From positions 50,961 to 114,960 of the IMG/VR virus record IMGVR_UViG_3300042882_000899: 64,000 nucleotides of DNA; one strand, written 5' to 3'. Source of the DNA: a virus. A program made the translations under genes and the position numbers. Of this stretch, positions 2,720-51,200 are shown piece by piece. A model generated the notes under the pieces. The model had not been told where the DNA came from. It was given only the letters and a program-made list of their open reading frames with translations, and ran no database searches. Numbering within the stretch: the stretch's first letter is position 1; the number at the start of each line of letters is the position of its first letter.

Positions 2720-2904
2720 TAGTTTGCTTTGTGGGGGGCTTACCCTGAAACTCAATATGTACCAGATAGTATCTGAGAATATATGTTCCAGGAATTGCTT
2801 TCTCTATCTTTCCAAAAAGAAAAAATTTGGGGGGTAGGGGGGCTTTCCTAAAATCTAATATCCCCAGATAAATCTATAAATACAAACAGAAAAGAAGGTG
2901 TATA

Positions 2905-3588
2905 GTGGATAATGGAATAGTCGACAAAGACAAAAACGTATACTTTTTGCATATTGCTGGTAATGGTGGAAGAGCTTTAAAAGAATATGTTTTAAATCCA
3001 TTGTTTGGTAAGCAATCTGATATAGTAGGAAAACATAACGGGTGGTCAGATTTTATTAATGATCAAACATATGTTATTTGCATATTAAGAGATCCTGTAA
3101 AGCATGCTTGCGGATTTTATCTTCACTTTGTATATAAAGAAAAAGAAGGAACTGATGTAAAGTCCCGATTCCTTGATTACTATAGAAATACAAAGCAGCT
3201 TCACAATTTTCAATCTCAAAATATACTTGTTTCAGGACAACATTTTAATTATGGGAATGGAAAACACTTTAATGAAGATCTAGCTGATACAGACTTAGAT
3301 CTACTTAACAGTAGAATTAAAAGAATAGATCTGCTTATAAGCCAAGATATGCTCCTTAATGACATTCAGCATGTCTCTAATGTTTTGGCTGAAAATTTAG
3401 ATCTACCAACAATCAAAATTAAAGAAGTTGACAAAACAAAATATTCAAATTATATGTCACGCAACTTGTATAAATCTCTTACAGAAGAAGAAAAACAGGA
3501 AATTCAAAATTTAAATAGTATTGATTATAAAATTTATAGTCAACTAAGATTAGAAGAAATAAAAAAACGGGGAGAGTACAAAAATTAA
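2905..3588 (+). CDS. Sulfotransferase-family (Sulfotransfer_2-like) protein
   Basis: YFLHIAGNGG resembles the FLHIPKTGG 5'-PSB loop; ILRDPV resembles the 3'-PB motif; C-terminal NxxDYxxY. Confidence 0.65.
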   Translation: MDNGIVDKDKNVYFLHIAGNGGRALKEYVLNPLFGKQSDIVGKHNGWSDFINDQTYVICILRDPVKHACGFYLHFVYKEKEGTDVKSRFLDYYRNTKQLHNFQSQNILVSGQHFNYGNGKHFNEDLADTDLDLLNSRIKRIDLLISQDMLLNDIQHVSNVLAENLDLPTIKIKEVDKTKYSNYMSRNLYKSLTEEEKQEIQNLNSIDYKIYSQLRLEEIKKRGEYKN

Positions 3589-23768: not shown

Positions 23769-25532
23769 ATGTCATATTACCTTTCTGCCATTAAAGACTT
23801 CCCAATAGGACTATGGAAGTTAGATGAATCATCTGGCTCAGTAGCCTATGATATTTCTGGGTGCGGAAATAATGGATTGTACGTCGGTCAAATATCTAAA
23901 TCTGGCATGCCAATTGTATCTGGTGGCACACACTCTAATAAAATAGATAGTTTAAATTATGTGCAATTCAACCTGTCAAAAGATTTTTCTGGAACTATTG
24001 GCACAGGAGGATTTGCAACAGATTCAACATACGATAATGACTTTACATTAGAAGCATGGATACACCCCAAAACATTAACTGCACTAACTCCAATACTGGC
24101 AGACTCTAGTGGCATAGGATTATATTGGGATAAAGGAAATGCTGTATTTAAATTAGAAAATGAACGAATTGATTATTCAGTAATAAACCCAAACAGAGTT
24201 ATTCACCTTGTTGGAATATATTCAGTTAACTCAATGAGCTTATATGTTGATGGCGCTTTGGTAGCATCCAAACCTGTATCTATTAAGTTTACAAATACTA
24301 GCGTAACATTATCTTCTGGGCCATGTGCATCTGGAGAGCATTTTATAATTGATTGTCCAGCCGTATACAGATATTCGTTGTCGGAAAGATCAATCCTTTC
24401 GCATTATAATAATTTATTTCTTAATAATGACGAGCAAGTTTCTGTTCCAGAGTTAGGAGAATTATTTAGGGCGGGAGAAAGATATCAAAGCGTAGAAACA
24501 AAATATGTATACCCAGCTCAAGTTTCGTGGGACACTCTTATATATGACAATGAAAATCTTTCTTACAACAAAAATAATAATAGTGTTTATTTAAATTCAG
24601 GATTTACATCTGGTGAATTTATTGAGGATATGGTTCTAAATGTTACTAAAGACTACATGTCGTCAAAAATTGATTGGGTTTCTTCTAATGGCGTATCAAT
24701 ATATGTTTCTGAATCTTCAGAAAATGGACCATGGGTTTTGTGTACAAATGGATCTTCTATCCCAGGATTTACGCAAGGATCTGCTTTTTCTAATTCAAAA
24801 GTTTTATATTTTAAAGTTCTATTTCAGTCCACAAATTCAGATGTATATATCCCAGAACTATACTCATTAAAAATTTATTTCTATTCTGAAAAAAAGATGT
24901 TTGCACATAATGGTGGTGGCTTTCTTGCAACATCACAACCTGCAACAGGATCTATATGGGACATTGACATAGCAAATGAACCTTATCAGGTCAGGCTAAG
25001 AAGTAGCACAAACGGAATAAGACCAAAATCCTCAGCTTTCTTTGTTAACTCTTTAAATGAAAATCGTAATATCGAAATGATATTTACTCCAAAATCTCTA
25101 TCCAGTGGTCACCTAATGTTTAATAAAACGGGATCAGTTGAGACGGCATTATCTTGGGCGGCAGGCGGAGCAATAGCAAAATCTAACATTAGCAATATAT
25201 ATATTAATGGCCAAGATGCCTCATCCGCTACCAACATATCATCATATTTATATATAGATGAGCCTAACTATATATTAATAAAAACCTCTAGTGCTATTAG
25301 TGGAGAAATTTGGTTTAATGGCAAGCAGCTTCTAGGAGTAAGATCAGGCGTATTGGATGATAATTTATACCAAAACTTAGCCTTGTACACAAATCCATCA
25401 ATTAGTCACCAGGAGCATTATGACTTATATATTGGCAAACCTGCTTCTATTGCTGAAGGATCGTCGATGGCAATGACAGAAGAGTCCGTATCCACATATT
25501 CTAGAGACAGAGTAGTGCTTCAAATCATATAG
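23769..25532 (+). CDS. LamG / concanavalin A-like domain virion protein
   Basis: WKLDESSGSVAYDISG, FTLEAWI, HLVGIY...LYVDG; ATG 6 nt after TGATATAAT. Confidence 0.75.
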   Translation: MSYYLSAIKDFPIGLWKLDESSGSVAYDISGCGNNGLYVGQISKSGMPIVSGGTHSNKIDSLNYVQFNLSKDFSGTIGTGGFATDSTYDNDFTLEAWIHPKTLTALTPILADSSGIGLYWDKGNAVFKLENERIDYSVINPNRVIHLVGIYSVNSMSLYVDGALVASKPVSIKFTNTSVTLSSGPCASGEHFIIDCPAVYRYSLSERSILSHYNNLFLNNDEQVSVPELGELFRAGERYQSVETKYVYPAQVSWDTLIYDNENLSYNKNNNSVYLNSGFTSGEFIEDMVLNVTKDYMSSKIDWVSSNGVSIYVSESSENGPWVLCTNGSSIPGFTQGSAFSNSKVLYFKVLFQSTNSDVYIPELYSLKIYFYSEKKMFAHNGGGFLATSQPATGSIWDIDIANEPYQVRLRSSTNGIRPKSSAFFVNSLNENRNIEMIFTPKSLSSGHLMFNKTGSVETALSWAAGGAIAKSNISNIYINGQDASSATNISSYLYIDEPNYILIKTSSAISGEIWFNGKQLLGVRSGVLDDNLYQNLALYTNPSISHQEHYDLYIGKPASIAEGSSMAMTEESVSTYSRDRVVLQII

Positions 25533-34136: not shown

Positions 34137-34469
34137 TTGGCAAGTACAGTATATGATGTAGAAGAGATTGAACTACAAAGCGGAGCTAAAGTAAAGCTCA
34201 AGCCATTATCAATCAAGCAACTACGAAAGTTTATGGAAGTAATTAAGAAAGTGCAAGACGCAGAAGACGAGACAGCAACACTCGGTATTCTTGTTGAGGC
34301 ATGCGGAGTAGCACTAGAGACTCAGCTACCAGATCTCGTTGCAGATCTCGACAAGCTTGAAGATGCACTGGACGTTCCAACAATTAACAGAATCCTTGAA
34401 GTTTGCGGAGGAATTAAGATGGACGACCCAAACCTAATAGCGGCAGCGGTACTGGCTGGTCAGAACTAG
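34137..34469 (+). CDS. Tail assembly chaperone (gpG equivalent)
   Basis: Between tail tube and TMP; TTG start after AGGAGG; slippery site near the end. Confidence 0.85.
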   Translation: MASTVYDVEEIELQSGAKVKLKPLSIKQLRKFMEVIKKVQDAEDETATLGILVEACGVALETQLPDLVADLDKLEDALDVPTINRILEVCGGIKMDDPNLIAAAVLAGQN

Positions 34470-34807: not shown

Positions 34808-37800
34808 TGGCTGACGAACAAATTGTAACCTCCATAGTCGCCAAAGCCGACTTGTCTAGCCTTGTGTCTGAAGTACACAGGGCTAGTGCTAGTCTTCAGC
34901 AACTCCAAAGAGAATTACTTGCTTCCAACAAGGCAATTTCTTCTTCAACAAAATTAGCAAACAATTTATTTAGAGACACACTAACTGGAAGCGGACAATT
35001 CTCCAGCCACTTTGTAAACCTTAATTCAGATGTTGATAAGTTCGGTAAGAATTTAGATGCAGGCAGATTAAAGCTTAAAAACTATTTCCAAACTTTTAGA
35101 GAGCATGCTACTACTCAAAAGGGAATGATCAGAGAACTTGCCAAAGAGCAAGTTATGCTTCAAAACTCAGTCCTGCAACCTTTAGGCAGAAATGCTCAAG
35201 GTTTAATGCAGTACAACGTCATGATCCCAAGAGGATTAGATGCTGTAAAGAATAGCGCACAGCTAGCTCGTATGGAACTGCAAATAATGAATCGTGCACT
35301 ATCTGAAGGAGCAGGATCTTTAATTAACTGGGGTAAGAATACTCAGTGGGCAGGTCGTCAGCTTACAGTTGGTCTTACAGTACCATTAACAATGTTTGGT
35401 GCCGCAGCTTCAAAAGCTTTTAGAGAAGCAGACCAAGAGCTCGTAAGACTTACAAAGGTTTATGGTGGACTAGCAGCAACATCTGCAACAGATTTAAAAG
35501 CAATTAGAGAAGAAGTTATTCAGACAGCAAAGTCTTTATCTCAAACAATGGGTGCTTCTTTTAAAGATACAATTGCTTTAGGTGCAGATATTGCAGCAAC
35601 TGGAAAGATGGGTAACGAGCTGCTTGGCTCAATAGAAGAAACAACAAGACTATCTATTCTTGGTGAAGTAGACAGACAAGATGCAATGAAGGCTACACTT
35701 TCAATTCAAACAGCATTTAAGCAGAACACAGAACAACTTACAGAATCAATTAACTTCCTTAACGCAGTTGAAAACCAGACATCTACAACTCTTAACGATT
35801 TAGTAGAAGCTATTCCAAAAGCTGGTCCAGTTATACAGCAACTAGGCGGAAGCATTGAAGACCTAGCTCTCTATATGACAGCAATGAGAGAGGGTGGTAT
35901 TAATGCATCTGAAGGAGCAAACGCATTAAAGTCAGGACTTGCTTCTTTAATTAACCCAACAAAGCAAACAGTTGGAATCATGTCAGACTTCGGTATAGAT
36001 GTAATGGGAATGGTTGCCAAAAATACTGGAAACACAACTGGCATGTTGATGGATCTACAAACTGCTCTTAATAAGCTAGACCCATTGAGTAAAGCAAGAG
36101 CGCTAGAGCAAATGTTTGGAAAGTTCCAGTTTGCAAGAATGAGCGCACTGCTCAATAACCTTGGAAAAGAAGGAAGCCAGACGCTTCAGGTTATGGATTT
36201 AATGAAAGCAAGTACTTCAGATTTGGCTGGTATTGCAGAGCGAGAATTAGGAATGATTACAGAATCTGCATCTGGTAAATACAGAAAGGCTATGGAAAGC
36301 CTAAAGGCAGAGCTAGCAAGCGTAGGAGAAGAGTTCCTCGGTATAGGAACTAAGATTCTAAATGCAGCATCAAAGATTCTGAATTTCTTTACTGAGTTGC
36401 CAACACCAATTAAAAAAGCTCTTACATTTATGGCAGGATTCACAGCATTAGTTGGTCCACTTATTATGTTAACTGGTGTGCTTGCAAACTTCTTCGGCTA
36501 TATAACAAAGGGAATAGTCCAGCTTAGATCTTTCTTTATGAGAGCAAACGGATGGAAAATGCTCACCCCAGAAATTATTGCTGCTCAAAAAGCAGCAGAG
36601 ATGGTTGAGAATGCGTTCTATTCAGATGCAGCAGCAGCTCAAGTTTTACACAACGCATTACAAAAGCTTGTTTTAGATTATCAAAACCTGCAAGCAGCTT
36701 CAATGAAAAATGCAGTTCCTGTAAACCCAGGAGTTAGCACAGTTGATGGAAATGCAGTTGTTGCAGCTGGAAGAAGATTCGTAGACCCTAACGATCCGTA
36801 TGTAGGAGATCCTAATACTAGAGCAATGTCTCACATTAGACCAAGAGATATAAATAACCCAGCAACTATATTTGGCGGGGTACCAGGAGCTATTCCAGTT
36901 AATAGAGGAATATCAAGAACTCCACAAATGTACATGCATGATAGACTTCCAAATATTGAAGGTCTAACAAGCGTTAAGGGGATATCCACAGGAATTGTTC
37001 CAGGAGAAGCAGCTAAGTTCCACGCATTAATGGCAACACTTGGAATGCAAACTGAGCAAGAAGTTGCTACATTAAAGAAGACTATTGCTATGGGCGGAAC
37101 AGTAAGTAGAGAGCTATTAGATACATTTGATGACATACTTCCTATAACTCAAAGATTTGCAAATAGCGCAGCAGAGCAATCTGCATTAATTGTGCAACAA
37201 ATGAGAAATGCTGAAATTACTGTAGACCAAGCAAAGGCAAGAATACTTGCACTAAATGCACAGATAGAAGCAGAAATGGGATCTGCTGTAAGTGCATATG
37301 CAGTAGGCAGAGGACGTACATTAGATTTAACAAAAGCTCCAATGATGAATCAACCAGTTGTTGATGCAAATGGACAATTTACATTAAGAGATTTATATAA
37401 GAAAGAATCCAACAGGGCAGTCATGGAAGAGTTTGGAAGAGTTCGTGGAGTAAGAACATTTGGAGCTCCTTACAGCATTCAGACAACAAGAATGCCTAAG
37501 TTCAATGATGGTGGAGGAGTTGAGTCCTTTGGTCCAGGAAAGACAATGGTATCTGGACCATCTTCAATTAACTATGACGACAGGCTTGGTAGCGTTCCAA
37601 TCGGAGGTTATGTACTAAATCAGTCTGCTTCAATGGACCCAGCGAATGCCCCACTCGTTGAAATGGCTGCAGCTACATATGAAGACGGCGGAAAGATAAC
37701 AGCAGCACTTACTCCACGGGAAGTAGTGTTTGGTCCTAAGATTCAAAGAATGCCTGAGCTGTATGCAGCAGTAGATGCAGCAAATAGCGGATATAGTTTT

Positions 37801-40800
37801 GGCGGTCAGATTATGAGAGGCACATATGGATATGGAAGAGACAGCGTTCTATCAATATGGGCAAAGCTAGTTAACTCTAAAGATTATCCAGTTGTAATTA
37901 AATCAGCAACAGTTGCTTCTGATGCTGCTATATTATCACAGCTTACTGGCATGGATATTAAAGATGCCACAAAGAGAGTTTCTTCAGATTATGATGAAGC
38001 AACAGAGTACGCTAAAAAGGCAGCAAATAAAAATGGAACAAGAAAAACAGAAGAGTTTGTAAAAGCAAGAACAGCCCAGCTTATTAGATTAAGCAAAGAG
38101 TACCCAGGTGCAAATTTAATTTTAGATCAATATTCAAGCAAAAATAAGTACAATCAAAGTGCAAAAGCAGCTGGTATGAAAGCTATAGCTCCTGAAACAT
38201 ATGCAGGAACAATGAGAGCTGTAGTTAAGGATTTAATAGATGATGGAGTTTTAACTCCAGCACAAGCAAAGAAAGTTTTTGGAATTTTAGGAGGAGTAAC
38301 AGATACGTACGATCCAATTTCTAAATCTCACACCATGACTGCACAAAGAAGTGCTTCAATATTCAAGCCAGGCGAATTACAAGCCCTACTTGTTAAAGAA
38401 GGAATGTCAAAAGCAGAAGCAGCAAAATTTGCCGATGTCACTGGAGTTAGATCAAATAATTTTGTTGGTCAGTCGACTGGGCTTGCAAAATCATTTAACA
38501 CTATGGGAAGATGGCTAGAGGTATCAACTGATGGAACTTTTAGAGATGAAGTTTCACCATTTCAAGACGAAGCAAAGGGCAACTTTATATCAGGAATTAA
38601 AAAACTTAAAACTAAGTTGGGAATTACAGGCCCCACAACAATGAAGGAAATTATTAAACAGCTAACATTGATGAGAATGAAATCTGCATCGGGCTTTAAT
38701 TCTAAAATGGTTACAACATTGCGTGGAAAGCTGTCACACATATCGTTTGCAAAACCAGCACTAGGCCCACTTGCTGGAGAATTTAATATGGGCGGAATGA
38801 TTCCAGGTGGATCTATATCTAGAAATAGAAAAAACTACGGAAATCCTGCTCAGTTAATAAAGCTTTTAGCTGCAGATAAGCAGCTAAAGATTTTAGCAAA
38901 AGCTAGAGAATTAAGCTCAAGAGCCCACCTAGGCAAGTTTGCTGATACACCAGTAACTGAATATGGACATCAAATTTCACCTAGCTCTGGTATGAGTTAT
39001 CCTATACCTGGCGTATCTGGATTGTATAAAGTTGATAAGAAAAAAGTTTTCGTTAAAGGCGTAGATCATGAAGTAGTTGCAACACATGAGCCAATCGGAA
39101 CCAGAATTGCAAGAGATCTTTTCGGAATAGAGGCTCCAGTTCAAACAGCTAGAACAGTTGTCAACCCGTTAGATCCAAAAAGAAAAAGCAAGCTGCTTGC
39201 ACTAGAATCAGACTATGATCCACGATTTGCAAACACTAATGTGCCATGGGATGAAGACACGATAATTAGACAGCTTGCTAATTCTCTTCTACTCAACAAT
39301 AAAGACTTATCTAGAGGTAACGTATACGGTAATTTTAACCCAGATGTTGGAAATGCTGGAGTGTTTAAAAAAGCATCTGGAAACACAGCACTTGCAGAAG
39401 CCCATGAAATGAACTCTATGGAAAAGCAAGCAATGATTAATTTACTTGCTGTTAAAGGTGGAGCAAGAAAAGACTTTGCACGTGATACAGCCCCAATAAT
39501 TGCTAAAATGAGCCCAAAAAAATATGGTCGAAAAATGAAAAAGGTGTTAGAGGATGCTCGTCCAAAATTATTACAACTAATAAATGATCTACCTGTAGAT
39601 CTTAGACCACCTTACCAAGCAATGCTCAAAAGATTGGATGATGGAATAGATGTTGATTGGAGTAAGTATCATGCTGTACATTCTAATCCAAAATATCTTA
39701 ATGCTGGAGGGCCAGTTGGTGGAGGACCAATAAAATCAGGAAGACGTGCCTATGGTCGAAAAGACGGGTCACGTAGACCAGGAAACCCTGCCGCCAGAGC
39801 TTCCTGGGAGGCAGAACAACGTGCACAAAGAGAAAGAGATGCAGCAGCAGAAAGATCTAGAGCTTCATCTCGTCAAATTACTGGCCAGCAGGCCTTAACA
39901 AGCGGGCTAGGAAGAGAAGCGGTAAGAACAGGAACAACAAGCTTCTATAATCCTGGGCAAGTAATGGTTAACAATATGCTTGACCCATTTAAAAATTCAG
40001 CAGCAATGAAAGCTCAGTACTTATCAGCAGCTTTTAGATCTATGGGAAATTCAATTAAAGTAGACTCTATGCAGCTAGCAAAAGCCATAGATATAAATGC
40101 AAGGGTTATTACTCAGTCTATAAAGAATACTGCTGCATCTATGAGCAGTGCTGTAAGATCAGCTGCTACATCAACATTAAATTTTGCCAAGAGAGCACAA
40201 AACGCAATCATAAGAGAGCAAAATGCATTTGCAGCAGCTAGATATCCTGTTGGACAAGCACCAGCACAAGGATTCTTTGGCCCAGGTTTTGTTGGAAATT
40301 ATAAGGACATGGGCGATGGTATTCAGTCTAGAAAAGTAGGAACTCTCGGAATGAGAAGAACAGAGTACCTTGTTGATGGAACCAGCATGACTGCAAAGCA
40401 AGCAGCAGCAGCAGGAGTAGTAATACCAAGACGAGCAAACGGTATGAGCATGGGCTCTCAAATGGGAATTGGTATGGCTGGCTCTATGGGCGGAATGGCA
40501 TTGATGAACCAGGAAAAAGTTTTGGGAATGAGTGGAATGCAGGCTGGAATGGGATTAATGGCTGCAACTTCAATCCTTCCAATGCTTCCATGGGCCAAGG
40601 TAGGTACTGGAATAAAATCTGCTGGAACTGCCTTAAAGGGATTTTCATTGACAATGGGAGGGTTAGCAAAATTTGGAGCAATGCTTGCAAGATTTGCTAA
40701 GGGCTTTGGATTAATAGGAGCAGCAATTACCGTTGCAAGTGCTGCATTCAAGATATACAAGGATTATAAGGATGCTCAGCAAGACGCCTCTATGGGTCTT

Positions 40801-43212
40801 TCTATGACAGCAAAAGCTGCAGAGCAAGCTGGAGTAAAATATTTTAATCTTCAGGAAACAATGCAAGGCTACATAGATAAGCAAAAGCTTGTCGCAGCAG
40901 CAGCAAAGGGATCAGAAAATAGCTCTATCGGAATGCCTGGTCTTCCTCAGTCTATAGAAGATATGAAGAAGGCAAAAGAAGAAGGCAAGGGCTTAAAGGA
41001 TCTTATTGAATCTATAAATAGATCAACCAGCACACAAGAAACACAAAGGCTTGTATCAAATCAAAAAGCTCAGTATATAGCAGCTGGAATGAGCATAGAG
41101 GAAGCAAATAAAAAGATATACGGTGCCTTAGCTAATAGCGATAAGGCGTCCCAAGCATATACAATGCTTGCAAATACAGAATTTGGATCAATTATAGATA
41201 AAGCTTCTGCAGCAGAATTTTCTGTTGGTAACCTTGTAAATACTTTAAATAAAGGCCCAGGAACAGCTGATTGGTACAAAGAAGTAGGCAATGGCTTTGA
41301 AGGTCTTATAAATGTTTTCTCTAACGCTACCACTTCATTGGTCGGAACTAAGGACGAGCTTGGAAATGTTATAGATGAGTATGAGGCTTATCAGATAGTT
41401 ATGTCAAAGGCAGAAGCAAATAATCCTGGAATGAATAAGGAAATTGGCGCAGATGCATACAGCAATCTTGAAAGAACACAGCCCCTACTGGCATCGATCA
41501 CAAATCAAACAGATAGTATAAAAGGTATTTTAGCAAAATGGAAACTTTTTACCTCTGGTATCAATGTAGATTTAAGTAAAATTGATTCAACACTAGCAAT
41601 AAAGCTAGCTGGATTTACTTCAGCAATTGGAACAGGAATTGCCGAATTAACTAAAGCTGCTGACAATTCAACAACATATGGAAAAACTGGGGCAGCATTA
41701 TCTAAATTACAAAAAACAATTGCCGCAACTTCTGCAGCCGCCCAAAGAGCAAATGCAGCTTCTCAAAGAAGCGCACAGGAAGAGCTAAAGGCAATTGCAA
41801 AAAAGATCAAGCTTATAGAGGAAGAAAAAAATAAAAAGCTAGAAGCATTAAGAGCAACCCAAGATGCTTCCAACTATGCATTAGAGCTACAGAAGCTACA
41901 AATTGAATATGCTGATGCAGTATCTCGTGGAGATACAGCTGCGGCAGCATCGGCAAGACTAAGCATTGATCAGCTTACTTCAAATAGACAGAGCGATCTT
42001 GCGGCTAAGGCAATTGAAGATGCTGCCAATAAGGCAAAAGCACCTTTAGAAAAAGACGCAGAAAGAATTCAAGATCGTCAAGATAAAAAGAATATTTCTT
42101 TCCAAAATGCTACAGATAATTCTGCAGTAGCTGGAGAAATAATGACAACCATTACTGGGTTTCAAACAAAGTATAATGATTTAACAACTAGAGCAATTAA
42201 CGCAAAGCTTCTTCCTGATAAAGAAAGAGCAGCAGAAGAAGCAAAGATTGTTACAGAACTTGTAGCTCTTATTAAAGAAATACAGAAAGCTGGATCTGGG
42301 AATACTACATCTGCAAAAACAATAAGAGACGCATTTGGCACCTATTTTGACAAAGACGGTAAGCCTATGTCCCCAGGAACCACTACATCAGGATCGCCAA
42401 TAGGATTTGATAAAAATGGTAAGCCTATATTGTCAAGTACTACGACGCCAAGTAAGGGAGTCACAGACGCATTTCAAAAAGACTTAGCTGCAGTAGAAAA
42501 GCTGGCAACATCAATTACTGGAGGAGTAACATTAAAAAATCTTCGTGACGATGTTGTAAGAGCTTTGGGTGGATACAAGTCAACAGCACCAAAGGGTACA
42601 GTAGAATTTGGAAAAGATACAGTTCAGCAAGGAAAAGGCAAAAATGCAATAGAGGCTGCTAAAAATGCAAGATCTTCTGGGTCTTCAAAGATGGTAAGTA
42701 TTAATGATGTTGTATGGTATAGATTCAGCTGGAATGGTAAAGACTACATAAGTAATGATTCTGGAACAGAAGTTTACTCTTGGGATGATCAGAAAAAAAC
42801 TAAGGGTGCTAGGGTTAAAATGGCTGACGGAGGAATGGTTAAACATTTTGGTCCTGGTGGAGGAGTTTACGGTCCAGGAACTGGAACTTCTGACTCTATA
42901 CCAGCTATGCTATCAAATGGAGAATATGTAATTAGAGCTGCATCAGTTCAGGCAGTAGGAGTTCCTATGCTAGATAAGATAAATAAGCTAGCAGGAGGAG
43001 GCATGGTTAGTTATGACATACCTAAGTATTCAGGTGGAGGCAGAGTGAGATTTGCAGATGGAGGCCTTGCTTCCTCTTCAAGTTCATTGTATAATATTAA
43101 TGTACAGCTAAACGGAACCAACTTGACAGCAGATGACGTTGCAGCTTCAATTCATAAAGAAATGAGACTTAGAGAAATGGCTTCTGGCGTAAATAGAAGG
43201 GTTGGTGGATAA
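34807..43212 (+). CDS. Tape measure protein, 2801 aa, with inserted domains including a kinase-like fold
   Basis: N-terminal TMP core (GANALKSGLASLINP), hydrophobic Gly/Ala segments, C-terminal GPGTGTSDSIPAMLSNGEYV motif; position after the chaperones. Confidence 0.92.
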   Translation: MADEQIVTSIVAKADLSSLVSEVHRASASLQQLQRELLASNKAISSSTKLANNLFRDTLTGSGQFSSHFVNLNSDVDKFGKNLDAGRLKLKNYFQTFREHATTQKGMIRELAKEQVMLQNSVLQPLGRNAQGLMQYNVMIPRGLDAVKNSAQLARMELQIMNRALSEGAGSLINWGKNTQWAGRQLTVGLTVPLTMFGAAASKAFREADQELVRLTKVYGGLAATSATDLKAIREEVIQTAKSLSQTMGASFKDTIALGADIAATGKMGNELLGSIEETTRLSILGEVDRQDAMKATLSIQTAFKQNTEQLTESINFLNAVENQTSTTLNDLVEAIPKAGPVIQQLGGSIEDLALYMTAMREGGINASEGANALKSGLASLINPTKQTVGIMSDFGIDVMGMVAKNTGNTTGMLMDLQTALNKLDPLSKARALEQMFGKFQFARMSALLNNLGKEGSQTLQVMDLMKASTSDLAGIAERELGMITESASGKYRKAMESLKAELASVGEEFLGIGTKILNAASKILNFFTELPTPIKKALTFMAGFTALVGPLIMLTGVLANFFGYITKGIVQLRSFFMRANGWKMLTPEIIAAQKAAEMVENAFYSDAAAAQVLHNALQKLVLDYQNLQAASMKNAVPVNPGVSTVDGNAVVAAGRRFVDPNDPYVGDPNTRAMSHIRPRDINNPATIFGGVPGAIPVNRGISRTPQMYMHDRLPNIEGLTSVKGISTGIVPGEAAKFHALMATLGMQTEQEVATLKKTIAMGGTVSRELLDTFDDILPITQRFANSAAEQSALIVQQMRNAEITVDQAKARILALNAQIEAEMGSAVSAYAVGRGRTLDLTKAPMMNQPVVDANGQFTLRDLYKKESNRAVMEEFGRVRGVRTFGAPYSIQTTRMPKFNDGGGVESFGPGKTMVSGPSSINYDDRLGSVPIGGYVLNQSASMDPANAPLVEMAAATYEDGGKITAALTPREVVFGPKIQRMPELYAAVDAANSGYSFGGQIMRGTYGYGRDSVLSIWAKLVNSKDYPVVIKSATVASDAAILSQLTGMDIKDATKRVSSDYDEATEYAKKAANKNGTRKTEEFVKARTAQLIRLSKEYPGANLILDQYSSKNKYNQSAKAAGMKAIAPETYAGTMRAVVKDLIDDGVLTPAQAKKVFGILGGVTDTYDPISKSHTMTAQRSASIFKPGELQALLVKEGMSKAEAAKFADVTGVRSNNFVGQSTGLAKSFNTMGRWLEVSTDGTFRDEVSPFQDEAKGNFISGIKKLKTKLGITGPTTMKEIIKQLTLMRMKSASGFNSKMVTTLRGKLSHISFAKPALGPLAGEFNMGGMIPGGSISRNRKNYGNPAQLIKLLAADKQLKILAKARELSSRAHLGKFADTPVTEYGHQISPSSGMSYPIPGVSGLYKVDKKKVFVKGVDHEVVATHEPIGTRIARDLFGIEAPVQTARTVVNPLDPKRKSKLLALESDYDPRFANTNVPWDEDTIIRQLANSLLLNNKDLSRGNVYGNFNPDVGNAGVFKKASGNTALAEAHEMNSMEKQAMINLLAVKGGARKDFARDTAPIIAKMSPKKYGRKMKKVLEDARPKLLQLINDLPVDLRPPYQAMLKRLDDGIDVDWSKYHAVHSNPKYLNAGGPVGGGPIKSGRRAYGRKDGSRRPGNPAARASWEAEQRAQRERDAAAERSRASSRQITGQQALTSGLGREAVRTGTTSFYNPGQVMVNNMLDPFKNSAAMKAQYLSAAFRSMGNSIKVDSMQLAKAIDINARVITQSIKNTAASMSSAVRSAATSTLNFAKRAQNAIIREQNAFAAARYPVGQAPAQGFFGPGFVGNYKDMGDGIQSRKVGTLGMRRTEYLVDGTSMTAKQAAAAGVVIPRRANGMSMGSQMGIGMAGSMGGMALMNQEKVLGMSGMQAGMGLMAATSILPMLPWAKVGTGIKSAGTALKGFSLTMGGLAKFGAMLARFAKGFGLIGAAITVASAAFKIYKDYKDAQQDASMGLSMTAKAAEQAGVKYFNLQETMQGYIDKQKLVAAAAKGSENSSIGMPGLPQSIEDMKKAKEEGKGLKDLIESINRSTSTQETQRLVSNQKAQYIAAGMSIEEANKKIYGALANSDKASQAYTMLANTEFGSIIDKASAAEFSVGNLVNTLNKGPGTADWYKEVGNGFEGLINVFSNATTSLVGTKDELGNVIDEYEAYQIVMSKAEANNPGMNKEIGADAYSNLERTQPLLASITNQTDSIKGILAKWKLFTSGINVDLSKIDSTLAIKLAGFTSAIGTGIAELTKAADNSTTYGKTGAALSKLQKTIAATSAAAQRANAASQRSAQEELKAIAKKIKLIEEEKNKKLEALRATQDASNYALELQKLQIEYADAVSRGDTAAAASARLSIDQLTSNRQSDLAAKAIEDAANKAKAPLEKDAERIQDRQDKKNISFQNATDNSAVAGEIMTTITGFQTKYNDLTTRAINAKLLPDKERAAEEAKIVTELVALIKEIQKAGSGNTTSAKTIRDAFGTYFDKDGKPMSPGTTTSGSPIGFDKNGKPILSSTTTPSKGVTDAFQKDLAAVEKLATSITGGVTLKNLRDDVVRALGGYKSTAPKGTVEFGKDTVQQGKGKNAIEAAKNARSSGSSKMVSINDVVWYRFSWNGKDYISNDSGTEVYSWDDQKKTKGARVKMADGGMVKHFGPGGGVYGPGTGTSDSIPAMLSNGEYVIRAASVQAVGVPMLDKINKLAGGGMVSYDIPKYSGGGRVRFADGGLASSSSSLYNINVQLNGTNLTADDVAASIHKEMRLREMASGVNRRVGG

Positions 43213-43802
43213 TGAGCTTTCAAAATTTATCAAAAGGCTCAATACTTTACATAGAAGCACTAGACCCATTTGCAATTGATCCAGCAACAAACTCATTCAA
43301 TTATAAAGGCGAAACAGTTGTTGCACCTGGTAATACATATACTGCATCCACAGCAACTACAAATGGTTTATCGCTATCAAGCGCAAACTCTTTAAGATTT
43401 AGAAGACTTACAGAACACAACAGATTACCACTTTCTTTGAATACAGAAAGAATTGAGTCTAGCCAAAGAATGGCAAACGGAGCTCTTAGAAAATATTTTA
43501 TTGCAGATAAGCTAAATCTGAATGTCTCATGGGAAATGATACCTTCGTTTAGAAATGAAACAGTAGATGGAGCATGGGGAGCAGAAGACATAAAGAATTT
43601 TTATGAAAGTGCTGCAGGTCGTGGTCCTTTTAGAATTAAAATTAATCCAACAGTTTTTTCTACTTCTTTAGTTGAGCAGTCAGATGGGGCATTGGCAGAT
43701 GACTATACATATACTATGGCATTTACTTCATGCGATTTCTCTATTATAAAAAGAGGTCTGCAGCCATTTTGGAGCGTCAATATATCCCTGGAGCAGGTAT
43801 GA
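43212..43802 (+). CDS. Distal tail (Dit-like) protein
   Basis: Position after TMP; RMANGALRKY motif. Confidence 0.65.
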   Translation: MSFQNLSKGSILYIEALDPFAIDPATNSFNYKGETVVAPGNTYTASTATTNGLSLSSANSLRFRRLTEHNRLPLSLNTERIESSQRMANGALRKYFIADKLNLNVSWEMIPSFRNETVDGAWGAEDIKNFYESAAGRGPFRIKINPTVFSTSLVEQSDGALADDYTYTMAFTSCDFSIIKRGLQPFWSVNISLEQV

Positions 43803-46800
43803 TATCTGTATCTACTGCAACGAGTGATCTTTTAAAAAAGGGATACGCCTTATCAACTTCTGCGGGGGCGACGCTAGAATATAATCTTAACTCTATGGTA
43901 GAGCATATATCTGCAAAAACAAATCCAGAGAGTATATCTAATCCTTATTCAAATGCTTTTAAGAAGCTATTTCCAATAGACACGATATATAAACCATTTA
44001 GGCCACTATCCCCAGGTATTAAATATTTAGTTAATACAATAGGCAATACAGATACCCCTTCAAATTCTTTTGAAAGACCAAGAGATCTTGATATGGGAAC
44101 AAAGCCTAGACTTTATTATCCTGGGCCAGATATGGTTTACAAATACTGGCTTGCCCCTAAAAATACGAATATTGATATTTCTTTAGAGTATTTTTCAGAT
44201 GAAGCAAAAACTACTGCTAAATTAATACCATCTAATAAAATAGTAGCCAGATTTGAAACTAGCCACGACACACCGACATTTTGGACTATATCTGCTGTTA
44301 AGCAGGATAACACTTTAATAACAGTTTCTGGTACCTCATTAAATTCAAGCGGGGAAGCAGTAATACATTTTAATGGTACTTCATGGTCAACAACTGAGCC
44401 ATCTACATATACTACAACTCAGTATATTAAAAAGGTTTCATTGCAAGCAGTTAACTCAAATACTGGAAAGTTAATAGGTGTCATAGAGCTTGTTCCAAAA
44501 TGGGTTCTGCCTGTAGACTCAGACATAGTATCATTTTCTGTGAATAAAGAAACAACTGCAGATGATAGCTCAATTGTTCCAGTTGGCATAATTACAGCGA
44601 ACTACTTGACTCTTTCTCTTATGAAGCCTCATACAACATCAAGATCTATTGTTGAATACAACACAAAAAATGCAATAGATAATACAAAAATTTATCTTTT
44701 TAAGAACACAATAGTTAAGCCACATGTAAACATTGGAAATGGAACAACATCTGAAAAAGCCCCCCAAGGCATATTCTATGTAAATTCATGGAACCTATCA
44801 GAGTTTGGAGATGCAACAGTAGAGGCAACAGATGCAGCAAAGATATTGCAGGACACACTTTGCCCACAGCTGCTAGTTCAGGATGCTCCAGTAACTTCTA
44901 TTATTAAAAGAGTTTTAGACTCAGTTGGATTTTCTACTTATAAAATTAATGTTAAAAAGGTTGATGGTAAAGTTGAAGACGACTCAATCCCATCATTAGC
45001 ATACTGGTGGTCTGAAGGAGATAAGACTGTGTGGGATGTTCTGCAGGAACTCTGTAGAGATATTCAAATGAATGCTTTTGTCGATGAGTACAACGTGCTT
45101 AATTTTTACAGCAGAAACTTTATATATGACACATCGGCACAAACTAAATGGGTATTTACTAGTGAAGAAATAAAAACTGGATCAGTTGTAGATTATGTCC
45201 CAAACATAATAAGCCTATCTTCCAGAGAAATTTTTTCTGCTAACCAGGTTAGAGTCAGATATTCAACAGCATTTGTTTCAACTAATCAGCAATCATCTCA
45301 ACCACTATGGACGTCTCCTGAGTCTTTTTTGGGAGCTGGAGCGTTAGCCACAGACATAAATGATGACACTGAAATTTTTCAGCTAAATCCAAACACTATA
45401 AACTCTGCAAGACCAGATAAAGTTTTAGATCAGTTTAGTGGATATGTTTTAATTAATGGGGAAATTATTGAATATGATGGCTTATGGTATCAGTATGTTC
45501 CATTATCTGGAGGGGCTCCAAGCAGAGTTCTCATAAAGAATCAGTCAGACATTTGGAAGTATTCAGCTTTGTCAAAGCCAGGTTATAAAAACTTTTACCC
45601 AACTGGAGAATATAATATAAAAACAAGAGGCGCTCTATCTACTCCAAAATCAGATCATAAAAAAGCATTAGATTCCTATATAAATAAATCTGGAGAGTCT
45701 GACCCAAACAAGTTTAATCTTTATAACATCACTTTAGCTACACCAGATACCGCAAAGTTAAAAGCTGGCGTAGGACAGATATCTTCTCCTGCACAGCCAG
45801 CTGGAGAGACTGTACAAAAAAGCTTCCTTGCCATATCAAACTTAGATAAAGATAAAAAAACATTTGATATAGCAGTCAAATCATTTAATTCGATAGATAC
45901 GTCTAAAGCTTTTTTTGCATGCGGCACTAGAATGTTTTTTGATAGTCAGCTCAATACCCCAGAGCAGGTTGGCGGAGTTGGATTTTGCCTGGACTCTACT
46001 GGAAAGAATGGTTACTACCTTTTAGTTAGAACAACAGCGTTTGCTGGTTTACAAAAGGATATAATGATAGTTAAGGTTAGAAATAATAAACTTACTGTTT
46101 TAAAAGATAGCCAACAGACTTCTACAAAAACACTAGCTGGTATTTATGCTGGGAGCTCTTACAATATAGATGTTTTAGTAAAGAGAGAGTCGATGGCAGG
46201 TAACACATTTAAAAACACTATCACTGTATTTATTAATGGATTTAAAATAACCGCAATTGATGCTGGTTCTGATTCTGTAAATGAATATATACCACCTACA
46301 ACAATTACTAAAAATGTAGGTTTGCATTGCGGGCAAGGCGTATCCTATTTTGAATATGTTTATGCAAAAAGCATAGACGAGGCGGAGTATAAAGAAAAAA
46401 GTTTAAATAAGGCTTACCAATATAACGGAGTATATTCAGACGACACAGTATCAATGCTTTATGGAGATATTATTTATAATGATGGGAATACTACCGTAGA
46501 CCAGAGTGGTAGCATAATTGAGTTTGGAACTGTAGCTAGAGAGATTAGAAAAGTAAAAGATTCTTATGATGAAAATAGACCAGCGGTCCCAATTCAGTTT
46601 AGAACTTCTATGAATAAATATGCCACTATCTTGGATCAAAGACTACAGCCTTTTACTGCAGAAGCGTATGTACTAAACAATACATCAACCTCAGTTATAC
46701 TTCACGATAATAACTACACAAGCTTTTACGTCCTTGGAAACTCTATTCAAAGGTCTGGAATTATTGATTACGATACAGACCAATCAAATGATTCAGAGAA

Positions 46801-47071
46801 TAAGGAGTCTGTAATTTTTGACTCATCATGGATTCAGTCAGAAGAAGATGCAAAATCTTTGGCAGAGTGGATTAAATCAAACAGCTTAAACAAAGGCAGA
46901 TTTGTTGATTTGAGGGTATTTGGAAATCCAGTATTATCTGCTGGAGATATTGTAAGTATAAATTATCCTATTTTAGGCATGTCTCCTAGTGATACTAAGT
47001 ATATAATAACAAGGTGCTCTTTAGAGTATTCGGAAGGAGTAAGTACCTCAATTTCGTGTAGAGCTATCTAA
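43799..47071 (+). CDS. Tail tip / baseplate hub protein
   Basis: ATGA-coupled start at 43799; GIFYVNSW, WDVLQELC..FVDEY, WIQSEEDAKSLAEW...GNPVLSAGDIV. Confidence 0.75.
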   Translation: MISVSTATSDLLKKGYALSTSAGATLEYNLNSMVEHISAKTNPESISNPYSNAFKKLFPIDTIYKPFRPLSPGIKYLVNTIGNTDTPSNSFERPRDLDMGTKPRLYYPGPDMVYKYWLAPKNTNIDISLEYFSDEAKTTAKLIPSNKIVARFETSHDTPTFWTISAVKQDNTLITVSGTSLNSSGEAVIHFNGTSWSTTEPSTYTTTQYIKKVSLQAVNSNTGKLIGVIELVPKWVLPVDSDIVSFSVNKETTADDSSIVPVGIITANYLTLSLMKPHTTSRSIVEYNTKNAIDNTKIYLFKNTIVKPHVNIGNGTTSEKAPQGIFYVNSWNLSEFGDATVEATDAAKILQDTLCPQLLVQDAPVTSIIKRVLDSVGFSTYKINVKKVDGKVEDDSIPSLAYWWSEGDKTVWDVLQELCRDIQMNAFVDEYNVLNFYSRNFIYDTSAQTKWVFTSEEIKTGSVVDYVPNIISLSSREIFSANQVRVRYSTAFVSTNQQSSQPLWTSPESFLGAGALATDINDDTEIFQLNPNTINSARPDKVLDQFSGYVLINGEIIEYDGLWYQYVPLSGGAPSRVLIKNQSDIWKYSALSKPGYKNFYPTGEYNIKTRGALSTPKSDHKKALDSYINKSGESDPNKFNLYNITLATPDTAKLKAGVGQISSPAQPAGETVQKSFLAISNLDKDKKTFDIAVKSFNSIDTSKAFFACGTRMFFDSQLNTPEQVGGVGFCLDSTGKNGYYLLVRTTAFAGLQKDIMIVKVRNNKLTVLKDSQQTSTKTLAGIYAGSSYNIDVLVKRESMAGNTFKNTITVFINGFKITAIDAGSDSVNEYIPPTTITKNVGLHCGQGVSYFEYVYAKSIDEAEYKEKSLNKAYQYNGVYSDDTVSMLYGDIIYNDGNTTVDQSGSIIEFGTVAREIRKVKDSYDENRPAVPIQFRTSMNKYATILDQRLQPFTAEAYVLNNTSTSVILHDNNYTSFYVLGNSIQRSGIIDYDTDQSNDSENKESVIFDSSWIQSEEDAKSLAEWIKSNSLNKGRFVDLRVFGNPVLSAGDIVSINYPILGMSPSDTKYIITRCSLEYSEGVSTSISCRAI

Positions 47072-48294: not shown

Positions 48295-51200
48295 ATGTCT
48301 GAACGGTATGAAGATCTAGGAATTACTCAGAGTCAAGACGGAGACTACTGGGACGTAGTCATACCAGACCTAGATTGCAGTACCAACTACGCATTGCAAG
48401 CTGCCTGGATTTTTAGCGATAAATCTTTAGGTACTAGCGAATTTTCTGATAGATTTAATTTCACAACCCCAGGACCATCTAGAGTTTGTCCAGCAAACGT
48501 TGCGGCAACTTGGGATGCAAAAGCTGGATTAAATGTAACGTGGCAAAAAAATGATACAAGGGTTAAGAACTATGTAATTAACTTACAAGCAGGTGGATAC
48601 ACTAGATCCTACTTAGTACCAGCTACTTCAGCACAAACAAACTACTCTTGGGTTCTAACTAGAGAAAATAATATATTTCAGTTTGGTGGAACATTTAGAA
48701 CATCATTTACTTCTTTTTCGATTCAAAGTGTTTACGGAGACGGCAGCTCAGATCAGTGCCCAGTAACAGTAGAGCCATTTGTAGATCTTGTATGTACCCA
48801 TGCGATACTAGACGCATCATGGAATGTTGTTAGTCAAAATAATGGAATATTGGTTTCTTGGCAGGATAGCGGAACGGCTTATGGAACTTACCGTGAAACT
48901 AGAGTTTATGTCTCTGAAAACAACAATCCGTATTCATGGGAACTTAAGTATACTGGAATAGGACCCGCATCCATCACACTTGATACGCTGGCTACAGTGT
49001 ATGTTAAGCTAAACCATCTTTCATATTCAGATTGTGAGTCTTTAAGCTCAAGCGTAAAAGAGGCAAAAGCATTTGACCCATTTGAGTTTGACGATACTCC
49101 TCCAGACCCAATTGTAAATCCTTCTGTTGCATGGAGTGGCTCAGACCTAATAGTTTCATTTTCAATGCCAGCTACAAACATACCGACATACGTTAAGTTT
49201 CATTTAACTTCATTAGGACAAACTGAGTATTTTGAAAAAACAATTTCTGGAGTGTCTGCAGGAGCTTCAACATCCGTAAAGATTAGTAGAGAAGAAATGA
49301 TAGAAGGATTTGGCTTTAGTCCATTATCATTTACTGGGGGGTACGCAACAGATTTAGATATTTACAGAAATGAAAATTTTACTCAAGTAAGCATATCTGG
49401 AATATCAGCTATAGTAAAACCAAATCTGCTACAGGGAATTACAACTACTATATCCGTAACTGGTTTATCTAATGGATATGTTGTCTCATCAAACTTAAAC
49501 GCAAAAGCTACTGGAATAAAAGTTTATCAAAGCTCTACGCAAAACGGAACCTACACCCTTGTAGCATCGTCCAACTCAAGCCCAGTTATTGTTTATGATG
49601 AAACAAATGCTGGCAACACTGTTTGGGTACAAGCTCAATGGACTTCAGAAAATGGCAACGCAGATATGTCAGTACCTGCTTCTGTTTTAATAATAGATGT
49701 TGCCTCACTATCCTTAATTGAAAATCCAGTTAAAATAAAAACAGATGGCTCTATATTTGCTGGAACCTTAGATTCAAACGATGAACCAGTTTTAACTGGC
49801 GCAAGAATGCTTATAAACAAACGAGGTTTATTTTTATACGATTCAAATGATACAAATGGAACAAATCCAACAACTCAAATAATTGGTGAAGAGAATGGAA
49901 TCACTGCAACATTTATTACAAAGAAAGCTAAAATAGCTAATTGGATAATATCTGAGAACAAGTTTGAGAATGTTTTAACTTCATCTACAAATACCTTTAC
50001 TGGAATTTCACCATCTGGAACCTATGCATTTTGGGCTGGAGCTGGAGTAGCTGGCGGATACTCACTAAATGCAAACGAAGATGCAAAATTTTCTGTAACA
50101 AAAGAAGGTGCTGTAACTGCAAGGAATATAAAGGTTCTTGGCGGACAGATATCTGTAGGGTCTAAATTTAGTGTAGACACACAAGGAAAAGTTGTAGCAA
50201 CAGATGCGGACCTATCTGGAGAAATTAAAGCAGCATCTGGAATACTTGGAAATTTAGCAATTGGCGGAACCATAAATGGAGTATCATATAGTGGACAACT
50301 TCTCATTGATGCTGGAAATGGATCTAAGGTAGAAATTGGAAAGTATACAAGTGGTGAAATAAACAATCCTTTAGTAGGATTTTCTGGAATACAAATTACT
50401 GGAGCAAACCAAAAGTACGTACAGCTTGATCCAGTTAGTGGAATTATTGCAAATAAAGGAACTATAGCTGGATGGACAATTGATAATACTTCAATAAACA
50501 AAGCTGGTAATGTCGGTCTGTTTGCAACAACAACCCCCACAGATGTTGCAATTTGGGCTGGAGGATCTAGAACAGTTAGTCCTAATTTTTCTGTTACCTA
50601 TGCTGGAAAAATGGTTGCAAGGGATGCCGTTCTTCGTGGAATGGTTCAGGCAGGAGAGGGCGGATTTGGAATATTAGAAGTTGATTCTACAACAGCAACT
50701 GGGTATAAAGTTTCTAACGGATGGACAATTGATTCTGCAAAAATAAAATCTACAAATACTTCTTCTCAAATAACTCTTGACGGACTTCAGGGTTCTATAG
50801 TTGGTGGAAACATTGTTGGCTCAAATCACTATTTTATGAGTCCATCTGCATGGACAACTGCTTATCCTGGGGAAGGAAGCGGTAACCCAGGAAATGTTGA
50901 CTATATATCTTCATCTGGTAATTTTAGACTTGCTAATGGAAAGCTAACATATGATGGAGATTCATTTAAGGTCCAAACAGATTTAGTTGCATCTAATATA
51001 TTTTTAGGTACGGCAGAAAGTTTTTCAAATGATTATATATTGGGAAAAAATACTACCATAGGTGGAGTTACAAAAAATGTTGGAAGCTTTAGCCTAGCAG
51101 GCGGAATGATGACTTATTCAAGTAATATTTTTCAAATAAATCAATCGAGAAACCCTAATTTTAAAATTTATTTAAATGTTGGTAATAATTTTGATGGCAC

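Follow-up and report, generated by a model that had tools for sequence, protein, structure and literature searches.

We found that the tape measure protein encoded in virus record IMGVR_UViG_3300042882_000899 carries, within its chain, a domain of the protein-kinase-like (PKL) fold that is probably an intact, active kinase. The domain lies in a stretch of 64,000 nucleotides, positions 50,961 to 114,960 of that record, to which we refer as the window; nucleotide positions are those of the window unless stated otherwise. An earlier note, made from the sequence alone, had proposed an atypical kinase domain embedded in a tape measure protein at 38830-39700. This span translates to amino acids (aa) 1342-1632 of the tape measure open reading frame (ORF), and the kinase core (aa ~1375-1628) lies within it. 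Comparison with related phages indicated that the kinase is an optional accessory cargo exchanged by recombination, not a structural part of the ruler.

The ORF that holds the domain is indeed a tape measure gene. A Pfam scan matched PF10145 (PhageMin_Tail) at aa 239-438 (6.6e-28), an NCBIfam scan matched TIGR01760 (3.7e-26), and PHROG tape measure families matched the 2801-aa ORF with values down to 8e-116. Upstream lie genes for a portal, a protease, a capsid protein, an adaptor and Ig-domain tail proteins, followed by a small ORF at the position of the tail assembly chaperone. The protein therefore shows both features of the TP901-type tape measure group, the PF10145/TIGR01760 match and a gene position between chaperone and distal tail genes, in an order syntenic with that of phage StarPlatinum.

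Each motif quoted in the earlier note was present at the residue it gave: GVSGLYK at 1402, VFVK at 1414, ATHEPIG at 1425, NNKDLSRGN at 1497 and PDVG at 1512. To assess conservation, the domains of 265 homologues, 27-100% identical, were aligned to a hidden Markov model. By secondary-structure position, K1417 and E1428 correspond to the beta3 lysine and the helix-C glutamate of the PKL superfamily; they were kept in 252 of 252 and 255 of 255 homologues. D1500 and N1505 make up the D-x4-N catalytic loop, with D1513 as the downstream metal-binding aspartate. N1505 and D1513 were invariant (260/260 each), and D1500 changed once (261/262). The glycine-rich loop was conserved at G1405 (252/252) and Y1407 (248/252), as was G1515 (256/260). 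The earlier note had named conservation of the lysine, glutamate, aspartate and asparagine as a test of its proposal, and all four are invariant apart from the single change at D1500. Two other explanations of the motifs, a chance coincidence and a pseudokinase, were rejected because the catalytic residues are invariant across the homologues.

The other test, a predicted kinase fold, also came out for the proposal. An AlphaFold2 model of aa 1360-1640, computed from a 40-sequence alignment and no templates, reached a predicted local distance difference test score (pLDDT) of 90.9 and a predicted template modelling score of 0.89. It has the two lobes of a kinase: the N-lobe consists of a beta sheet with helix C, and the C-lobe is made up of helices (residues ~179-273 of the model, pLDDT 80-99). 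A Foldseek search of the PDB returned kinases only, with CtkA first (probability 0.98, E 6e-3), and all 50 of the 50 best structural neighbours were protein-kinase-like enzymes. When we re-aligned the top 1,000 Foldseek chains, CotH scored highest (11.9; root-mean-square deviation 3.8 Å over 213 residues), followed by CtkA (10.9), MavQ (10.1), PI4KII (9.8), LepB (9.0) and HipT (8.9). CotH is thus the closest structural neighbour of the domain, and small-molecule kinases fell far below CotH and CtkA. In a feature search of the ESM Atlas, the domain was nearest to unnamed viral clusters; the nearest named clusters were PI3_PI4_kinase, LepB_N, HipA_2 and actin-fragmin kinase. The model therefore supports placing the domain in the "atypical" branch of kinases, with CotH, CtkA/HipA, MavQ, PI4KII and LepB as neighbours.

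The earlier note had labelled the domain HipA/CtkA/PI3-PI4K-like. The structural neighbourhood agrees with this label, but CotH scores highest, and none of the sequence models of the named families matches. At E<=10, Pfam searches of the whole protein and of three sub-regions, including aa 1292-1681, returned no model for the kinase domain, and the NCBIfam scan left it unmatched as well. Searches of PDB sequences by phmmer and by profile returned only a GG motif of tape measure structure 8zdo and noise. Of the individual families, the CotH model (PF08757) and HipA_2 (PF20613) had no match in the genome at E<=10, HipA_C (PF07804) had none in the Pfam scan, and PF00454 (PI3_PI4_kinase) had none at E<=10 in either the genome or the tape measure protein. 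PF00454 did match one of 40 homologues, at E 0.008 and under its cut-off of 27.1 bits. Because no Pfam, NCBIfam or PDB sequence model detects it, the domain is, as far as these models define families, a new sequence family and not CotH, HipA or PI3/PI4K. Searches of the literature found no description of a kinase in a tape measure protein.

The known kinases nearest in structure also differ from the domain in their setting. CotH of the Bacillus spore coat (PDB 5jd9/5jda) is only 11% identical to it, and is a free-standing cellular protein that works in spore-coat assembly, whereas the domain described here is built into a phage tape measure protein as an internal cassette. Unlike Helicobacter pylori CtkA and the HipA/HipT toxin kinases, the domain is embedded in a virion protein and has neither a HipA model match nor an antitoxin context: it is internal to the tape measure ORF within the tail gene module, and no arrangement with a HipB/HipS partner was found. 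The phosphoinositide kinases (Legionella MavQ and LepB, PI4KII alpha/beta and PI3K/PI4KIII) are set apart by PF00454, which does not match the tape measure domain.

Relatives of the domain were found almost only within giant tape measure proteins of uncultured phages. A set of 5.8 billion proteins yielded 157 matches among giant proteins, and an exhaustive search extended the family to at least 158 clusters at 50% identity, with a common core at aa ~1375-1628. A tblastn search of 50,697 GenBank phages with the domain and with its most divergent member, P0265, gave no match in the kinase region; the matches of P0265 were confined to tape measure linker regions. One peptide-pattern scan of 185,579 species genomes, a single pattern of low sensitivity, returned no cellular or prophage carrier. 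Several short homologues (P0208, P0221, P0265 and others) had looked like stand-alone kinases, but were rejected as such: they are fragments on short contigs (956-7,504 bases in the three examined). P0265 itself comes from a metagenome contig of 2,427 bases and contains a kinase (aa 13-282) followed by a HAD-type phosphatase (aa 436-570), which matches Acid_phosphat_B (1.2e-6). The linker between them matches tape measure proteins of Gordonia and Mycobacterium phages, so that kinase and phosphatase form a pair within one tape measure fragment.

A Foldseek search of BFVD also listed candidates for similar folds in further large phage proteins, several of actinophage origin (E 5e-5 to 1e-2), and a phage protein with a "PI3/4-kinase catalytic domain" (E 3e-5). 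Among the candidates, A0A6J5S481, A0A6J5PWC9 and A0A6B9L6W7 are annotated as a portal (HK97-type, one) or as ADP-ribosyltransferases (two, from an uncultured phage and from Mycobacterium phage Onyinye, A0A6B9L6W7), and A0A4D6E245 (Gordonia phage GodonK) and A0A5Q2F0H9 (Gordonia phage Sixama) are uncharacterized. Such putative folds in other virion proteins, portal fusions among them, speak for the delivery proposed below, and the cultured phages in this group could serve as systems for studying virion-borne kinases.

An empty site in a relative indicated that the kinase is an optional cassette. The tape measure protein P0298 (2,477 aa) can be aligned with our protein over aa 1-1345 and again over aa 1625-2799; exactly the cassette between them (aa ~1346-1624) is missing. 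Of the 120 tape measure proteins nearest to ours in the N-terminal region, every one with at least 86% identity has the kinase, and five at 74-76% identity are without it. Identities are also mosaic. P0080 and P0085 are 99% identical to our protein at aa 150-640 and only 55-56% identical in the kinase, and P0003 is 88% identical N-terminally and 97% identical in the kinase. The position of the kinase varies as well: in most cases it is near aa 700-800 or near 1300-1400, and only seldom past 2,000. From the empty site, the kinase-less relatives and the mosaic identities together we conclude that the kinase is exchangeable; an optional, recombining cassette behaves as accessory cargo, unlike a part of the ruler.

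The boundaries of the cassette are marked by sequence. In the protein studied here, the kinase is flanked on both sides by a peptide of about 22 residues (Table 1) of the form (F/L)-N-x-G-G-x-(I/V)-x-G-G ... Y-G. At the empty site of P0298, a single copy (FNLGGPIGGG...NYG) stands at the junction. Across the family, 46% of the flanks upstream of the kinase and 54% of those downstream contained the N-x-G-G motif, compared with 7% of 75-residue segments drawn at random from the same tape measure proteins. The delimiter could serve as a joint for recombination, as a hinge or as a site of processing. Similar peptides were seen near 37500-37800 and 42820-43070, where the recurring ~22-aa peptide likewise marks limits of modules in the tape measure protein, and a GG motif related to the delimiter aligns to gp16 of the solved tape measure structure 8zdo. 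The module of ~320 aa upstream of the kinase (37804-38766) varies from 27% to 88% identity among backbones that are otherwise 88-99% identical, and is missing in some; it looks like a second exchangeable cassette.

Table 1 Features of the tape measure gene and its surroundings; positions are those of the window, except for the WhiB-family protein
Feature	Position	Strand	Basis or remark
Tape measure protein gene (P0001), 2801 aa	34807..43212	+	Single uninterrupted ORF; Pfam, NCBIfam and PHROG matches
PhageMin_Tail core (aa 239-438)	35521..36120	+	Pfam
Hydrophobic segment 1 (aa 537-567), N-terminal to kinase	36415..36507	+	Kyte-Doolittle, maximum 1.94; same place in relatives
Variable, mostly helical module (aa ~1000-1320), no known fold	37804..38766	+	Upstream of kinase
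Upstream delimiter peptide FNMGGMIPGGSISRNRKNYG (aa 1325-1346)	38779..38844	+	
Protein-kinase-like domain core (aa 1375-1628)	38929..39690	+	Shared homology region of relatives
Gly-rich loop GVSGLYK (aa 1402-1408)	39010..39030	+	Start of strand, model residues 46-50
Lys1417, equivalent of beta3 ATP-binding lysine (VFVK at 1414)	39055..39057	+	Strand E53-60 of model
Glu1428, equivalent of helix-C glutamate (ATHEPIG at 1425)	39088..39090	+	Helix H63-80 of model
Catalytic loop D1500-L-S-R-G-N1505, D-x4-N (NNKDLSRGN at 1497)	39304..39321	+	Loop after helix H124-136
D1513-V-G, DFG-equivalent metal-binding Asp (PDVG at 1512)	39343..39351	+	Just past catalytic loop
Downstream delimiter peptide LNAGGPVGGGPIKSGRRAYG (aa 1630-1651)	39694..39759	+	
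Gly/Met-rich hydrophobic region 2 (aa ~1860-1981), C-terminal to kinase	40384..40749	+	Sequence reading; hydropathy peak aa 1963-1981
Small ORF at tail assembly chaperone position	34137..34469	+	phrog_10504; annotated chaperone of StarPlatinum similarly placed
Minor tail protein, 1,113 aa, downstream of tape measure gene	43730..47071	+	phrog_10359, 4e-83
WhiB-family protein (locus L022)	G000:C1:23939-24112, upstream of window	+	45.4 bits, above Pfam cut-off

The phage itself probably infects an actinobacterium, as the earlier note had guessed. The virus record is 114,960 bp long, is rated 96% complete and has ~38% G+C. Streptomyces phages of the Stanwilliamsviridae, for example StarPlatinum, have portals 58-60% identical to the one encoded here, and the tail module is syntenic with that of StarPlatinum. 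WhiB is a marker of actinobacteria and their phages, and among 14 control genomes the WhiB model matched only the actinobacterium Corynebacterium glutamicum. The WhiB gene and the Streptomyces-phage-like structural genes make an actinobacterial host likely, and the low G+C suggests one from a low-GC lineage. StarPlatinum, the closest cultured relative, has a tape measure protein of 2,102 aa that is without the kinase and resembles ours only over the N-terminal ~550 residues (aa 55-597 here, 32% identity). At the position of the large terminase (23769-25532) stands a 587-aa ORF that matches only phrog_11584 (unknown function); its counterpart in StarPlatinum, gene 47, is annotated "hypothetical".

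We then considered where such a kinase could act. Hydropathy was computed as a Kyte-Doolittle scan with a 19-aa sliding frame, and the kinase is flanked by hydrophobic segments (aa 537-567 and ~1860-1981); in relatives, too, the kinase usually falls between two such regions. Some relatives carry CHAP, LysM, OmpA or M23 domains as well as the kinase, for example CHAP and LysM at ~2790-2980, or OmpA and CHAP at ~2830-3150, and these wall-acting domains sit C-terminal of hydrophobic region 2. One divergent tape measure protein has M23 at 2198-2291. The C-terminus of a tape measure protein is generally held to exit the tail first. From this order we infer, and only infer, that the C-terminal part would meet the wall, the hydrophobic regions would span the membrane, and the intervening loop would face the ATP-containing cytoplasm. 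The extra domains seen in P0011, P0077, P0257, P0301 and P0302 (CHAP, LysM, OmpA, M23 and the tail lysozyme PF18013) go with tape measure proteins of about 2,500 to 4,600 aa in this group; the varied domains and the wide range of sizes indicate that tape measure length is not set by ruler function alone.

In our favoured explanation, which we hold to be rather probable, a pre-made kinase is delivered into the host together with the tape measure protein, in line with the earlier note. The predicted fold, the constancy of the catalytic residues, the limits of the cassette and its dispensability are results, whereas catalysis, delivery, membrane topology and substrate are things we infer here. 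The tape measure protein would fill the tail lumen and exit first as infection starts. Both of its hydrophobic regions (aa 537-567 and ~1860-1981) would insert into the host membrane, leaving the stretch between them, kinase included, exposed to ATP-containing cytoplasm. There the kinase would phosphorylate a host target, a protein or a membrane lipid, ahead of any phage gene expression.

Delivery gains plausibility because the cassette is dispensable and because there is a precedent. The tape measure protein gp96 of Thermus phage P23-45 carries a virion RNA polymerase that transcribes the pre-early genes (PMC10770324), which shows that an enzyme fused to a tape measure protein can act in the cytoplasm. 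As is proposed for the protein described here, gp96 is a giant tape measure protein with a cytoplasm-acting enzyme that works ahead of phage gene expression. It differs in that the enzyme is an RNA polymerase, is N-terminal and not an internal cassette, belongs to another phage lineage and host, and has an experimentally shown activity.

Other delivered proteins offer partial parallels. In contractile particles of Streptomyces, the functional domains of the tape-measure-like effector Sle1 can be exchanged (PMC13277306). Iyer et al. (2017) described kinase domains in "polyvalent proteins" of phages and plasmids, which are virion-delivered (PMC5512222); as here, the kinase domain is part of a larger protein that is predicted to accompany the DNA into the host. 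Those kinases are described as having lost the whole C-terminal subdomain, whereas ours keeps a helical C-lobe (179-273) and so falls outside that group. They also occur mainly in (pro)phages of Verrucomicrobia-Chlamydia and Bacteroidetes, and the paper does not mention tape measure proteins, the very proteins in which the present domain sits (PMC5512222). The muralytic inserts of tape measure proteins (M23, CHAP, LysM and tail lysozyme) are likewise enzymatic domains inside tape measure proteins, but they attack the cell wall and use no ATP. A kinase depends on ATP, and its presence implies that it can reach the cytoplasm.

Several points weigh against delivery of an active kinase. A tail lumen of ~4 nm may be too narrow for at least three copies of a folded domain of ~30 kDa; the kinase domain would therefore have to travel unfolded and then refold. 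In P0257 and P0227, the kinase comes after both hydrophobic regions, which does not agree with a simple loop topology. The catalytic residues would cluster in space around an active site, as judged from their secondary-structure positions in the model, and the spacing of 8 residues from the asparagine to the metal-binding aspartate looks shorter than is usual in kinases. Judged from sequence, moreover, no cultured phage in the 50,697 GenBank phage records carries the domain.

One alternative is that the kinase acts in the producer cell, where it would phosphorylate the tape measure protein itself, tail proteins or factors of the host while the tail is assembled or earlier, and that its presence in the virion is incidental. 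It would then resemble CotH, its closest structural neighbour, which phosphorylates proteins of the spore coat as that protein shell is assembled. But a late enzyme needs no fusion into the middle of a ruler protein, and the cassette is dispensable in otherwise similar tape measure proteins, so that assembly as such does not require it. Delivered effectors are, furthermore, recognised by their fusion to virion proteins that are ejected (PMC5512222; PMC10770324). We regard action in the producer cell as improbable.

Lipid phosphorylation, which we rate about as low, is a variant of delivery with a different substrate: the flanking hydrophobic segments would hold the domain at the inner face of the membrane, where phosphatidylinositol or a related actinobacterial inositol lipid would be phosphorylated at the site of entry. 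MavQ, PI4KII and LepB do stand among the structural neighbours, but CotH and CtkA, both protein kinases, reach equal or higher scores, PF00454 does not match the tape measure protein, and the data revealed no lipid-binding loop. The more specific proposal, that the membrane-threaded loop acts as a phosphoinositide kinase on actinobacterial phosphatidylinositol lipids and remodels the membrane locally at the entry site, is slightly less likely again. If true, this would give phages their first virion-delivered lipid kinase, and bacterial infection the first phosphoinositide signalling event to be described.

Least credible is a kinase fold put to other chemistry (AMPylation, ATPase activity or phosphorylation of small molecules) or to a non-catalytic role as a nucleotide-binding or structural plug: kinases of small molecules are well behind CotH and CtkA in score, a pseudokinase has as a rule lost one or more of the Lys/Glu/Asp/Asn/Asp residues whereas all five are kept here (D1500 in 261/262), and a structural plug is hard to square with the clean absence of the cassette from P0298.

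Wall-degrading domains are a known cargo of tape measure proteins, and an RNA polymerase is known from one of them (PMC10770324). A conserved, ATP-dependent kinase in the middle of the ruler implies that the central portions of such proteins enter the cytoplasm, and that tape measure proteins are modular carriers with defined swap points. A description of the family would give an annotation to hundreds of proteins that at present bear only the label tape measure, and the design of a cassette bounded by delimiters could guide engineered cargo delivery by phage tails. The carriers are probably actinophages of lakes, and the finding would imply that a large group of abundant uncultured phages modify their host post-translationally, or modify its lipids, before gene expression.

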